DNA of 32,000 bases from Staphylothermus marinus F1 (lineage in GTDB: Archaea > Thermoproteota > Thermoprotei_A > Sulfolobales > Desulfurococcaceae). Both the position numbers and the translations under genes were made by a program. Shown here piece after piece: positions 1,426 to 20,856 of the stretch. Under the pieces are notes generated by a model. It was not told the DNA's origin and did not search any database. It was given only the letters and a program-made list of their open reading frames with translations. The stretch spans positions 420,001-452,000 of the forward strand of contig NC_009033.1 in NCBI RefSeq assembly GCF_000015945.1, read 5' to 3'. Position 1 is the stretch's first letter. Each line of letters opens with the position of its first letter.

Positions 1426-1685
1426 AAGACTATTCGCTTATTTGGATATTATGGTTGTTTTGGAAATTATGAAAACTGTTGTTTTGATAGATTGGCGGGG
1501 TTCGCTTTATAAACCCTCACTAATATAATGGTTAATAAAAAGCAGATGAAGGGCTCAAAAGTGGTCTGTGTGGAGCCCCGATAGCCCCCTCCGTGAAGGG
1601 ATGAAGCCCCAACCCAAGAGGGGGAAGCCCGTGCAAGCATCCAAAATTTCCAAAACAACCAAAAAATAAAGCACGGGCATCCACT
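1426..1685 (+). mobile_element. GC-rich repeat element 'E2', copy A (MITE-like, carries a TATA box and a structured-RNA-like core)
   Basis: Boundaries are set by homology to 19855..20093: both copies start AAGACTATT and end CCACT. The ~140-nt core differs at about six positions by eye. Flanked by TAA (1423-1425) and TAA (1686-1688). TTTATAAA at 1506-1513 lies about 30 nt upstream of the GC-rich core (1545-1685). The core has stems GGGCTC/GAGCCC, CCCCCTC/GAGGGGG and GCCCGTGC/GCACGGGC. Strand is assigned from the TATA-to-core order only. Confidence 0.6.
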
Positions 1686-6643: not shown

Positions 6644-6964
6644 CTATTTTCTCTTGCCAATATATTTAGTTATTAGCTGTAAGAATGGTGGGAGCGATCT
6701 AGTTTGTACATATATTCTTCCAGGTCCTTCAACTTCTATGACAAGTTCTTCTCCACCGAAAAAGAAGCTTTTTAATCCACCAAACCTTCTAATATTCCAT
6801 TTCATACCGTCATCCATTGCTACGAAGTGGAAATTATCTATGATGATTCTCTCGCCTACACCCAGTTCTTTCTTTAATATTCCTCCATAACTATTTATCC
6901 ATACGCCGCCAACGCCACTAGCTTTTAGCCAAAACATTTCTCCCTCAGCTAATAATCCTCTCAA
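6644..6964 (-). CDS. AIM24/DUF124 (TIGR00266-like) protein, C-terminal half (downstream of an in-frame TAG)
   Basis: GEMFWLKASGVGGVWINSYGGI...GERIIIDNFHFVAMD...GEELVIEVEGPGRIYVQTRSL is typical of the second half of AIM24-family proteins. It is in the same frame as 6971..7354 and separated from it only by TAG at 6971-6973. Confidence 0.65.
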   Translation of the reverse strand: MRGLLAEGEMFWLKASGVGGVWINSYGGILKKELGVGERIIIDNFHFVAMDDGMKWNIRRFGGLKSFFFGGEELVIEVEGPGRIYVQTRSLPPFLQLITKYIGKRK

Positions 6965-6970
6965 ACCCCT

Positions 6971-7354
6971 CTATGCAACACTCAGCTTTATATCGCCATG
7001 GTGTGCAAGATAGCTTGTATCTTGAATAATTAGGTCTCTCGAACCATTCAGAGCAACATACTCTATATCTCCGGGTAAAGAAGGAGCAAACCAAACCTCT
7101 CCTCCCCTAGGACCTGCTGTGAAAGTATTCATGAATATTGATTCTCCACCCAATAATTTTCTTGCAATAGCACTACCCAAACCACCTGTATGAGTTTTCA
7201 CATTAACGTCCCCAGCCATATACACCATAGCACCAGGCTCTGCAGTAACGCTTTCATTCGGTTCAAGGACTACTTGTAAAAGAGAATATGAAGGCCTAGT
7301 TACAATTTCCCACTTCATAATGCATACCCCGAATAAACAGCAACATATATTCAA
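6971..7354 (-). CDS. AIM24/DUF124 (TIGR00266-like) protein, N-terminal half (ends at an in-frame TAG)
   Basis: MKWEIVTRPSYSLLQVVLEPNESVTAEPGAMVYMAGDV...GGESIFMNTFTA matches the family N-terminus. The likely true start is MKWEIV at 7318. The two halves together total about 224 aa, the usual family size. Confidence 0.65.
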   Translation of the reverse strand: MNICCCLFGVCIMKWEIVTRPSYSLLQVVLEPNESVTAEPGAMVYMAGDVNVKTHTGGLGSAIARKLLGGESIFMNTFTAGPRGGEVWFAPSLPGDIEYVALNGSRDLIIQDTSYLAHHGDIKLSVA

Positions 7355-7464: not shown

Positions 7465-7592
7465 AGCCGCCGGCGGGATTTGAACCCGCGACCACCGGCT
7501 CTCCCGGCCTATGTATTGTACGGGCCTGAATTAGTTCCTTGGTCTCTTCGGGCTTACAAGGCCGGCGCTCTACCGGGCTGAGCTACGGCGGC
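7465..7592 (-). tRNA. tRNA-Thr (anticodon UGU) with a 54-nt intron
   Basis: Reverse strand reads GCCGCCG-TA-GCTC-AGCCCGGTA-GAGC-G-CCGGC-CTTGTA-[intron 7501..7554]-A-GCCGG-TGGTC-GCGGG-TTCAAAT-CCCGC-CGGCGGC-T. It has a perfect 7-bp acceptor stem and a canonical T arm. The intron is at the canonical 37/38 position. No CCA is encoded. Confidence 0.9.
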
Positions 7593-18508: not shown

Positions 18509-18659
18509 AACTCTCTGTTCAGTGCCGAGAATATTATATGTTGAAAAACTAGATATGCCTTACATATATACCTATTTCTTAAACGATATATAGTTATCTA
18601 TAAACCATCTAGTATAGATTGCCTCAAATATTATTGATAATAATTCACCAATAATTGGA

Positions 18660-18706
18660 GTTCAACCCACATAGGTCTTAATAGACCCACGTAGGCCTTG
18701 GAGCAC
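18660..18706 (-). repeat. Degenerate copy of the hairpin-containing K-turn module (see 19485..19542 and 20596..20649)
   Basis: GTTCAACCCACATAGGTCTTAATAGACCCACGTAGGCCTTGGAGCAC aligns with 19488..19534. The box equivalents are degraded: TTGA instead of CTGA, and TTGTGCT instead of GTGATGT, on the reverse strand. Confidence 0.5.
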
Positions 18707-18779
18707 AAGGTAATGCTTAGTTAAAATATCGCAATCTCTTAAATCATATCCTAGAACACTTAATGAGGGGAATACGTTT

Positions 18780-19502
18780 ATGGTTAGCTATAGGAGAATT
18801 ATATATGCTATAATAGAATCTGTTGGTTTAGGTTTTAATGTTAAACCTGTTCAGGAGGCTATTAGGAGGGTTATTTCTAAGTATAGAATAAGTGATCCTC
18901 AAGTTGATCGTAAGGTTTCCGGCATAGTTTACAGTATTTACCGTTATCAGGGGCTTTTAGATAAGATCGTTACCGACATAACCGGTTTTAATCCTTCAGA
19001 TCTCCCATATTATGTTCATGCAGCCTTACTTGTAGCTGCTTATGTTTCACAATTAGACGAGAAGATGAGTAGCTCGATGAAGAGAACTTTTAAGAGATAT
19101 ATTCTGAGATATTTGGGCAAGAAAATAGGTGATAAAGCAGTTAGAGAGAAAATTATTGATAAAGCTAAGCTGTTATTTAATAATAAATGGTCTCCAAATA
19201 GTGAAGAAGACAAGGTTCTTCTAAAATATAGGGTTTCCCCAGAACTATACCGTGCACTAGCTAAGGCTCTCAAAGAACTCGGTGAAAATCTGGATGATTT
19301 CTTAAATGCAACAATGAAGATCAAGTATAGGGTTTTCAGGGTTAATTCTTTGAAGGCTAAACCGGAAGCTGTATATAGATTTCTCGAAGACTCAGAGTAT
19401 AAGGTTGAACTGGGTAAGTACAGTAGGAGAGCTATTAGAGTTTATGGGAGTATTAGGAGGGAGATTATAAGGTTTATTGAGACAGGGGTTCAGCCCACAT
19501 AG
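18780..19502 (+). CDS. NOL1/NOP2/Sun (RsmB-like) RNA m5C methyltransferase, N-terminal domain only; first fragment of a broken gene
   Basis: It has a NusB-like N-terminus and YRVFRVNSLKAKPEAVYRFLEDSEYKVE...RAIRVYGS...RFIETG, which is typical pre-catalytic Sun-family sequence. After codon 236 (19487) the ORF runs into the GC-rich repeat and stops. Confidence 0.7.
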   Translation: MVSYRRIIYAIIESVGLGFNVKPVQEAIRRVISKYRISDPQVDRKVSGIVYSIYRYQGLLDKIVTDITGFNPSDLPYYVHAALLVAAYVSQLDEKMSSSMKRTFKRYILRYLGKKIGDKAVREKIIDKAKLLFNNKWSPNSEEDKVLLKYRVSPELYRALAKALKELGENLDDFLNATMKIKYRVFRVNSLKAKPEAVYRFLEDSEYKVELGKYSRRAIRVYGSIRREIIRFIETGVQPT

Positions 19503-19662
19503 GTTTTGATAGACCTATGTGGGCTTTGGGACACATCACCCCTGCGGATGATTCGCAGGAGCTCGTCCCCTTTCGGGGTAACCCCGGAGCCCCACATCCG
19601 AAGGTACGCCCCCATAGGCTACCATTGTAGCCTGACAGAGGGGGCTTTTACCACCTCCACAA
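19485..19662 (-). ncRNA. K-turn (C/D-box-like) sRNA paralogue 'R2', antisense, inserted in the Sun gene
   Basis: Reverse strand 3' module is GGGG-TGATGT-GTCCCAAAGC-[11-bp hairpin CCCACATAGGT/ACCTATGTGGG]-CTGA-A-CCCC (19485..19542). This is homologous to the C'/D half of 24636..24719. Upstream are GC-rich hairpins, including CCCC-GAAA-GGGG. TTTAAATA on the reverse strand (19683-19690) lies about 25 nt upstream of the proposed 5' end. Confidence 0.45.
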
Positions 19663-19755
19663 TTGTATGTATATGGTAAAGTATTTAAACCTTTTGGATC
19701 GAAGGTTGATTAATGCTTACGAACGCCCACCAAATCCGTTACTGTTGCGGAGGGC

Positions 19756-19860
19756 ATACTTGTTCCACAGGATGAATCAAGTATTGTGGCCGTAGAAATT
19801 CTTGATCCAAAGCCTGAGACCAAGATTGCGGATCTATGTGCTGCTCCAGGTGGTAAGACT
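19756..19860 (+). pseudogene. Sun-family methyltransferase fragment 2 (SAM-binding motif I)
   Basis: ILVPQDESSIVAVEILDPKPETKIADLCAAPGGKT matches the Q(D/E)xSS...DxCAAPGGKT block of NOL1/NOP2/Sun enzymes. It is in a different frame from fragment 1. Confidence 0.7.
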
Positions 19861-20093
19861 ATTTGCTTATTTGGATACTATGATTGTTTAGAGGGGCTAG
19901 TTGTTTGGTTCGCTTTATAAACCCTTTATAATATAGTGGTTTGTGAAATGCGGATGAAGGGCTCAAAAGTGGTCTATGTGGAGCCCCGATAGCCCCCTCA
20001 ATGAAGGGATGAAGCCCCAACCCAAGAGGGGGAAGCCCGTGCAAGCATCCAAAGTTTCCAAAACAACCAAAAGATAAAGCACGGGCAACCACT
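19855..20093 (+). mobile_element. GC-rich repeat element 'E2', copy B
   Basis: Homologous to 1426..1685. It has the same ends (AAGACTATT...CCACT), TTTATAAA at 19904-19911 and a near-identical GC-rich core at 19943..20093. No flanking direct repeat is present here. Confidence 0.6.
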
Positions 20094-20094
20094 A

Positions 20095-20292
20095 CTATAT
20101 ACAGTATGCAGTGTATTGCCTTGGGAGGGAGAATATATTATCAGGGATTTCCTGGAAAAACATAGGGATGCAGAGCTTATACCATTAAATAAGCCATTCA
20201 AACAATCACCTATCCTGCCAGGTACAATGCGTGCATGGCCCCATATACATGGCACCATAGGCTTCTACTATGCATTACTAAAGAAAAAATAA
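20095..20292 (+). pseudogene. Sun-family methyltransferase fragment 3 (C-terminal end, motif VI onward)
   Basis: LYTVCSVLPWEGEYIIRDFLEKHRDAELIPL...RAWPHIHGTIGFYYALLKKK matches the (V)YSTCS..EENE..V..FL ... GFF.A.L.K terminus of the family. The roughly 125-145 residues between motif I and this block, including the DAPCSG motif IV, are absent. Confidence 0.65.
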
Positions 20293-20496
20293 TGATGCTC
20301 ATAAATTATCTGATCAACTTTTAAAGGAGGGTCAGAAGAGGCCGAGCCTTCCCCATTCCCAGCCATGGGATACGGGACAGGCCCATCGAAACTGTTAAAT
20401 ATTACATAGGCATTTATAGATGTTGGGCCTGCTCGGGATGCGGGTGTGTGGGTGGAGACCTAAGGGGGTAGGTCTTCAAATAATATTTCGTCTCAA

Positions 20497-20661
20497 GATG
20501 AAGGGTTTTCCCCACAGCCGTGAGCTGTGGGCAGGGGTTACCCGGATCGGGGACAAGGCCGATGATATGCTCCCCGATGAAAGGGGGGCTGAGGTTGATG
20601 AATCCCAAAGCCTACATAGGCCTATCAAGACCTACGTAGGCTGAACCCCGGCTTCTTCATC
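20497..20661 (+). ncRNA. K-turn (C/D-box-like) sRNA paralogue 'R3'
   Basis: 5' GATGAAG (20497-20503) is exactly complementary to 3' CTTCATC (20655-20661). Internally it reads GATGATA...CCCC-GATGAAA-GGGG...CTGA-GGT-TGATGA-ATCCCAAAGCC-[hairpin CCTACATAGG/CCTACGTAGG]-CTGA-ACCCC. It shares GGGGTTACCC.GA..GGGGAC with R2. The 5' end could lie further upstream (about 20443), downstream of TTTATAGA at 20413-20420. Confidence 0.5.
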
Positions 20662-20856
20662 CCATAGAATCAATAAATTATACTAACCATATATTAATTC
20701 CCCCGAATGTTTTTACTTGTCGATAATAATATTTTTAAATTACTCGGGATAAATGAGAATATGTCTTTATTCACGGGAAAATACTAGTAAAACAATAAAA
20801 TAAGAAGTTAAAATAAAATTACAAATAGCAACATAATAGTTATTAGGGTTATTGAT

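Follow-up and report, generated by a model that had tools for sequence, protein, structure and literature searches.

The window analysed here, a stretch of 32,000 nt from Staphylothermus marinus F1 (GCF_000015945.1, NC_009033.1, positions 420,001–452,000 of the forward strand), contains two copies of a repeat, E2, the first of which splits a membrane-protein gene. E2 is almost certainly a non-autonomous mobile insertion without a gene of its own, that is, a miniature inverted-repeat transposable element (MITE) in the broad sense. Taken as a whole, it is best explained as an IS607-type element with a module resembling an omega-RNA (the guide RNA of TnpB), a reading to which we give about an even chance. 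An earlier note on this DNA had proposed a non-autonomous mobile element; this is borne out by an empty site in Staphylothermus hellenicus, by at least three copies in different genes and by assembly breaks inside E2. Coordinates throughout are window positions, position 1 being the first letter. The two copies, the host sequence to their left and the parts of the split gene (ORF, open reading frame; TM, transmembrane segment) are as follows.

1432–1685, equally 1429–1682, + strand: E2 copy 1, 254 bp with one ACT, delimited by the S. hellenicus empty site (L001)
19861–20093, + strand: E2 copy 2, 233 bp, with two deletions in its left part relative to copy 1
1426–1431 (copy 1) and 19855–19860 (copy 2), + strand: host hexamer AAGACT to the left of E2, identical in both copies
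340–1431, − strand: C-terminal part of the split gene for a 12-TM membrane protein (Smar_0402 is ORF 340–1356)
1683–2135, − strand: N-terminal part of the same gene; the called ORF, 1467–2135, extends into E2

The earlier note had looked to an empty site in an orthologous permease, and one was found in S. hellenicus, where the ortholog (P0001, 530 residues, 83% identical) is uninterrupted. At the insertion point the S. hellenicus DNA reads CTAAGT^CTCTTATTAGG on the gene strand, which gives an insertion of 254 bp in F1; the body of E2 is 251 bp if ACT is counted as a duplicated core. Deletion of the 254 bp restores an ORF of 513 codons. The two copies had previously been described as direct-orientation repeats, and so they are (1426–1685 against 19855–20093, same orientation; blastn E = 3e-75). 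The accompanying claim that 1426–1685 'precisely' splits the gene stands only in part: removing that segment does yield one ORF of 511 codons, but the true insertion is the 254-bp segment, and restoration of the frame does not establish precise boundaries, as nearby deletions of length 2 mod 3 all restore it. The junction protein is GGGLSLLLGTG in S. hellenicus and GGGLLLGTG in the fusion first proposed. AAGACT codes for L-S in the permease (minus strand) and for K-T of the AAPGGKT motif in the methyltransferase gene that is the host of copy 2; it is thus host sequence at both loci, and the outer six nucleotides of the apparent homology do not belong to E2. The TAA/TAA target duplication proposed in the earlier note has to be given up, since the empty site itself already contains both TAA triplets, and the repeat at the junctions is ACT.

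In copies 1 and 2 the junctions share one layout, AAGACT–element–(T/A)CCACT–flank, in which ACT is common to the left flank and the right end of E2. It is present at both junctions of these copies (1429–1431 and 1683–1685 in copy 1) and at the right junction of a third copy; as a target-site duplication it cannot be told from a recombination core belonging to the element. As read from the sequence, this fixed 3-nt core points to site-specific recombination at the DNA level, and AAGACT is a candidate target or motif like a target-adjacent motif (TAM).

The insertion into the permease gene postdates the split between S. marinus and S. hellenicus, the DNA identity of which is 86.7%. Its left junction is also present in two independent short-read assemblies of S. 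marinus type (L003 and L005, 99.0% identical over 11 kb). A second strain shares the insertion, which we take to be old. The contigs of both assemblies end 30–40 nt inside E2, as contigs usually do at repeats, which implies at least one further copy that resembles copy 1 in the segment absent from copy 2. In F1 the gene has been damaged a second time: a T-run within 373–394 shows a 1-nt deletion (TTCTTTTTTG to TTCTTTTTG on the gene strand), which shifts the frame of the last ~30 codons. This deletion is present in the reference and in an independent F1 assembly and is absent from the 99%-identical strain and from S. hellenicus. With an insertion and a second, frameshifting lesion, the permease gene is a decaying pseudogene, and Smar_0402 and ORF 1467–2135 (probably Smar_0403) are the halves of a single dead gene.

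The host of copy 2 is a pseudogene of an RsmB/Sun (NOL1/NOP2)-type methyltransferase (18780–20292, + strand), in which E2 directly follows AAPGGKT. The flanks of E2 match Pfam profile positions 2–23 on the left and 135–199 on the right, so that positions 24–134 (about 111 residues, including the catalytic motifs) have been lost at the right side of E2. This deletion could have arisen by recombination between two E2 copies or as an element-adjacent deletion. The pseudogene carries at least three lesions: the insertion of another repeat, E1, near 19485, E2 at 19861 and the 24–134 deletion.

The only trace of copy 3 is a spurious RefSeq protein, P0009 (WP_148676696.1), whose record carries no genome position; it was found with a minus-frame E2 peptide and was the sole protein match. 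Its sequence, ...VVEN/SGCPC-Y-ARASPSWVGASSLHGGGYRGST* (the slash marks the break), can be compared with P0014, a 66-residue homologue of its N-terminal part that continues as VENSILKL. This continuation past the break puts the copy 3 junction at AGT, again ACT when read on the strand of the element. Copy 3 lacks the 36-nt loop of the last predicted stem (described below) and the right arm of the inverted repeat. Compared with 1.8 billion representative proteins, P0009 matched only P0014, through the host-gene part, and low-complexity sequences, and it was not tied to the genes named in a 2009 paper on S. marinus elements (discussed below). The three host genes of E2 are unrelated and have been struck in both orientations, E2 lying antisense to the permease gene and sense to the methyltransferase gene.

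Two exact 20-mers of E2 gave no matches in genome contigs of other species, including S. hellenicus, which agrees with an element restricted to this lineage. As P0009 points to a third F1 copy, F1 itself appears to be absent from, or masked in, the contig collection, and the zero matches have no meaning for the copy number in S. marinus. Metagenome contigs gave one match (L004), a chance match in a GC-rich coding region. Viral contigs gave no E2 matches, and the phage and plasmid collections only chance matches of 32 nt.

The internal organization of E2 is set out below for copy 1, with the flank that a transcript leaving its right end would enter.

1453–1468, extended 1446–1471: left arm of the inverted repeat, perfect over 16 bp (GGTTGTTTTGGAAATT); the extended arms are 26 nt with 88% complementarity
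1478–1485: second direct copy of the GTTGTTTT motif, in the left part of E2
1506–1513 (19914–19921 in copy 2): palindromic TATA-like box TTTATAAA, within a 19-nt block, GGTTCGCTTTATAAACCCT, identical in both copies
1543–1685, + strand: conserved core, 61% GC over 1543–1641
1551–1556/1573–1578, + strand: stem A of the predicted fold
1585–1591/1618–1624, + strand: stem B of the predicted fold
1627–1634/1671–1678, + strand: stem C of the predicted fold, enclosing a 36-nt A-rich loop (1635–1670) and followed by the 7-nt tail AUCCACU
1645–1660, extended 1642–1667: right arm of the inverted repeat, in the A-rich loop of stem C, 15–18 nt from the right end
1686–1726, + strand: right flank, which overlies the permease gene's N-terminal part in antisense, with the first + strand T-run (TTTTT) at 1722–1726

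At the left end, 14 nt of unique sequence separate AAGACT from the arm of the inverted repeat. The perfect 16-bp inverted repeat is therefore sub-terminal, 14–21 nt inside the ends, and the outermost 14–15 nt are not complementary. Repeats of GTTGTTTTGG, two direct at the left and one inverted at the right, are likewise sub-terminal. A 30-nt AT-rich spacer separates the TATA-like box from the GC-rich core. The earlier note had pointed to a TATA box about 30 nt upstream of a GC-rich core, and both copies agree (61% GC in the core against 36% in the window); the three stems that it had described, the last with an A-rich 36-nt loop, are reproduced by fold prediction.

The core is better conserved than the rest of the element (Fisher p = 2e-4): it is 95% identical between the two copies with no gaps, against 79% identity and 21 gap positions in the left part (1432–1542). 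In-place decay cannot explain this left-part divergence of 21%, which exceeds the 13% divergence between the species although the insertion postdates their split. The copies probably descend from different source variants that all retained the core, a pattern that suggests the core is constrained across the element family as a whole. All nine substitutions in 1537–1685 fall in columns predicted to be unpaired; the chance probability is roughly 0.01–0.06, though with some circularity, since the same sequences served to predict the structure.

Stems A–C are purely Watson–Crick and so do not indicate a strand. On the + strand copy 1 has no run of four or more T between 1514 and 1721, that is, from the TATA box to 37 nt past the right boundary, and in copy 2 no such run occurs within at least the first 60 nt past its right boundary. 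The minus strand inside E2 has a T6 run and several T4 runs. With no terminator on the + strand, transcription from the internal promoter would give a + strand RNA that runs into the flank and not a self-contained small RNA. From these sequence features we regard it as plausible that E2 carries a promoter-driven structured RNA.

Some further features of the predicted fold concern its 3' end. In the minimum-energy fold at 85°C, AGUGG of the stem A loop (1560–1564) pairs with the 3'-terminal CCACU (1681–1685), and a T-to-A change in copy 2 at the position of 1680 extends this pairing to 6 bp. In the model the pairing could be a pseudoknot-like closure next to a putative guide, or chance. The stem A loop also holds GGUCU, which is complementary to AGACU of the target.

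For comparison, the serine recombinase TnpA of IS607 elements places its crossover in a short core that target and element have in common (10.1101/2023.11.20.567912), so that the TAM adjacent to the left end (LE) and the right end (RE) resemble each other. The crossover core is accordingly common to TGGG, the TAM next to the LE, and to TCGG at the RE, the scaffold of the omega-RNA stops exactly at the RE boundary, and protein-less mini IS607 elements are excised in trans by TnpA (same source). Anderson et al. (2009; BMC Genomics 10:145; PMC2678158) report five elements of the IS607 family in S. marinus: four near-identical copies with a single ORF each (Smar_0083, 0767, 1150 and 1546), and a fifth with two ORFs, the first of which is truncated.

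We propose that E2 may have arisen by deletion from the IS607-family (orfB/TnpB-type) elements that this genome has, and may have been moved in trans by TnpA. Crossover would take place at the short core common to the target and the right end of E2, and ACT would then appear at both junctions with no need for a true staggered-cut duplication; the recombinase would probably bind at the sub-terminal GTTGTTTTGG repeats. The three-stem module with its own TATA box would act as an omega-RNA-like scaffold, the transcript continuing into the flank, and the right flank (1686–1726) would supply the guide. TnpB, acting in trans, would cut the empty site (AAGACT plus flank), and homing would restore E2. 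The position of the module fits an omega-RNA: only 7 nt separate its last predicted stem from the boundary, and the + strand is free of terminators until 37 nt into the flank. An IS607-type origin and mechanism seems slightly more probable than not, an omega-RNA-like function of the core is a tentative proposal that we hold with less than even confidence, and the full specification (a protein-less guide-RNA cassette on a mini element of IS607 type that has an archaeal promoter of its own, with AAGACT as TAM and TnpB borrowed in trans) is doubtful.

E2 resembles the IS607 elements described by Zedaveinyte et al. (2023/2024) in having a shared core, AAGACT/(T/A)CCACT here and TGGG/TCGG there, no inverted repeats at the very ends, apparently no real target duplication and a structured module (predicted in E2) at the RE boundary. 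It differs in that the core is ACT or CT and not GG, in its archaeal host and internal TATA-type promoter, and in having no tnpA or tnpB nearby. The earlier note had stated that the window contains no transposase; among window ORFs of at least 110 residues there is indeed no match to a transposase, recombinase or TnpB family.

Several observations weigh against this reading. Anderson et al. (2009) report a single IS607 orfA, which is truncated, and the genome thus has no known active transposase. The MITE-disrupted genes given there are Smar_0733 and Smar_0327/0328, and the three hosts of E2 are not among them; by its size and inverted repeats E2 may belong to the published MITE family or to a sister family, and any homology of its ends to IS607 ends is putative. 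The shared 6-nt left flank comes from two full copies and is suggestive, not proof, of target specificity. E2 has no Rfam family match, either at the gathering threshold or at E ≤ 10, and every E2 frame is broken by stops or without a protein match. Five-frame translations of E2 found no protein, although glycine linkers may have diluted the candidate list; the core translations, too, matched none, which implies that the core does not overlap an annotated TnpB C-terminus. The fold z-scores against shuffled sequences are modest (−1.9 to −2.1 at 37°C, −1.0 to −1.6 at 85°C), and the core shows no covariation, there being two sequences only. By inspection of the sequence, a good TFB-recognition element (BRE) is found on neither side of the TATA box, and the direction of transcription is therefore not settled by the sequence.

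The main alternative to the omega-RNA reading is an ordinary MITE, in which the GC-rich part would consist of hairpins or recombinase sites acting as DNA and untranscribed, and the TATA box would be a chance AT-rich octamer or a promoter relic. Purely Watson–Crick stems form equally well in DNA and on either strand, which suits this alternative, as do the weak z-scores, the lack of covariation between two sequences and of an Rfam match, the missing BRE, the right inverted-repeat arm inside the loop of the last stem and the absence of that loop from copy 3. It accounts less well for a 100-nt block of 61% GC in a hyperthermophile genome region of 36% GC, for the 19-nt TATA-box block perfectly kept within a variable left half, and for a + strand that alone is terminator-free up to the boundary. 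GC-rich blocks in AT-rich hyperthermophile genomes are reportedly, after Klein, Misulovin and Eddy in 2002, a classic signature of structural RNA. We consider the DNA-level explanation less likely than not.

The same promoter-like palindromic TATA box and conserved GC-rich core would also suit an independent small-RNA gene unrelated to TnpB, with a regulatory or antisense role, or the outward-firing promoter proposed in the earlier note, and from copy 1 transcription would enter the N-terminal part of the permease gene in antisense. A small-RNA gene would normally be expected to have its own T-run terminator, which the + strand lacks, and Rfam gives no match. The hosts are unrelated and struck in both orientations, which makes a common regulatory role unlikely. 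This possibility we judge to be a good deal weaker than the DNA-level MITE.

A non-autonomous derivative of the IS110/IS1111 type, with a bridge or seek RNA whose loops determine both the target AAGA-CT and the donor ends, would share with E2 the lack of inverted repeats at the very ends, an apparently sequence-specific target, a CT-containing core at both junctions and a (predicted) structured RNA of ~150 nt at the element end. Loop A, AGUGGUCU, includes pentamers that could pair with CCACU at the right end and with AGACU of the target. Such 5-nt complementarities are expected by chance, and the fold lacks the architecture of two internal loops. The type is further made unlikely by the report of only IS607-family transposases for S. 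marinus in PMC2678158, and we regard it as very improbable.

Scarcely credible, finally, is an archaeal bulge–helix–bulge (BHB) intron that would be spliced from the mRNA and leave a functional permease. Removal of 254 nt, which is not a multiple of 3, does restore the frame, and a weak half-motif with a 4-bp central helix and a mostly G-U outer helix lies 7 nt upstream of the junction. We reject the intron because there is no canonical BHB motif at the junctions (0 hits, where 2 of 300 random control placements reached the same criterion), E2 has opposite orientations relative to its hosts, copy 2 is accompanied by the loss of ~111 residues, and the permease gene has its second, frameshifting lesion.

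Two other element classes were considered and set aside. The earlier note had also called the element like a short interspersed nuclear element (SINE); E2 has no terminal A/T tail and no long, variable duplication, its right end is GCACGGGCA(T/A)CCACT, its A-rich tract is internal, in the loop, and its junction repeat is fixed at 3 nt. The palindrome-associated transposable elements (PATEs), which derive from IS200/IS605, were rejected because the GC hairpin of E2, GCCCGTGC/GCACGGGC, is at the right end only, with no left counterpart.

Gene-less PATEs often encode omega-RNAs, for which TnpB must act in trans (PMC10055086). Like PATEs (Dyall-Smith et al., 2011; Meers et al., 2023), E2 is small and non-autonomous with sub-terminal structure, lies beside a short conserved motif and has a putative RNA cargo that would need TnpB in trans. 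IS605-type elements differ from it in having similar imperfect hairpins at LE and RE and a Y1 transposase. PATEs are of IS605 type, whereas the elements reported for the S. marinus genome are of IS607 type. Among crenarchaeal elements, E2 also resembles the Sulfolobus MITEs SM1–SM4 in being short, multi-copy, gene-disrupting, non-autonomous and (putatively in E2) dependent on resident insertion-sequence (IS) transposases. The SM elements, which Redder, She and Garrett are said to have described in 2001, reportedly have true terminal inverted repeats and target duplications matching IS families of the DDE type, and, unlike E2, are not known to have a GC-rich RNA-like core.

The closest published relatives may be in the same genome. 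Anderson et al. (2009) describe 14 copies of a putative MITE of ~260 nt that resembles the region upstream of four of the IS607-family ORFs. E2 shares with these elements the genome, the approximate length, inverted repeats, the disruption of genes and a non-coding nature, and its left half would fit their similarity to IS607-ORF upstream regions. It differs from them, as the paper describes them, in its putative promoter and RNA module, ACT core and AAGACT target, none of which is mentioned there. Gene-disrupting elements of ~260 nt have thus been known in S. marinus since 2009; the E2 insertion is another instance of an element kind already noted in this genome, and the guide-RNA module is the sole possibly new point.

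For the annotation, the consequence is that Smar_0402 and its neighbouring ORF should be treated as one dead gene, and the nearby gene for an rRNA/tRNA cytosine methyltransferase as a multiply struck pseudogene. If the GC-rich module is indeed a TnpB guide RNA with its own promoter, archaeal IS607-type elements would have shed their protein genes and kept the guide, which would support a modular, in-trans model of RNA-guided transposon maintenance. A TAM (AAGACT) and a scaffold would then be defined for a nuclease working near 90°C. E2 would then correspond, in an archaeon and with a promoter of its own, to the PATEs that bear omega-RNAs in bacteria, and a thermostable TnpB–guide pair could be obtained from it.

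The methyltransferase gene is also the site of E1, the second GC-rich repeat family in the window (18657–18707; 19463–~19690, + strand; 20400–20671, − strand). One E1 copy breaks the N-terminal part of the gene, an inverted copy with its own TTTATAG box lies just downstream of it, and a 51-nt solo hairpin lies upstream. One end of E1 bears a near-perfect palindrome, CCCACATAGGTCTTGATAGACCTATGTGGG. Alignment of E1 with E2 gave no convincing homology. A short-read contig of F1 (L006) starts inside the E1 hairpin, so E1 is also multi-copy, and it could be the MITE family published in 2009.

Around copy 1, the minus-strand gene order is a TrmO-like gene, an ABC transporter ATPase gene, the split membrane-protein gene (2135 down to 340) and NMD3; the arrangement in S. 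hellenicus, TrmO–ABC ATPase–permease–NMD3, is identical. The ATPase gene is placed as follows.

2140–2904, − strand: gene for the ATPase of an ABC transporter, next to the split gene on its upstream side

With the fused membrane ORF as the protein query, Smar_0402 of S. marinus F1 was returned at 100% identity. Exact-protein look-ups gave no record for the N-terminal permease ORF, the ATPase, the C-terminal methyltransferase ORF and a glycosyltransferase. The label 'ABC-2' given to the permease in the earlier note has no support from Pfam: its orthologs match PF09847 (12TM_1) weakly, and our own scan returned DUF6121 only, below threshold.

Elsewhere in the window, a 128-nt Rfam match to tRNA (60.8 bits) lies at 7465–7592 on the minus strand, and ARAGORN found no tRNAs across the window; this tRNA gene presumably contains an intron. 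Close to it, in a relatively GC-rich region (6800–7300), a 127-residue ORF at 6971–7354 (− strand) matches positions 1–110 of the 205-position AIM24 profile only, and may be another truncated gene.

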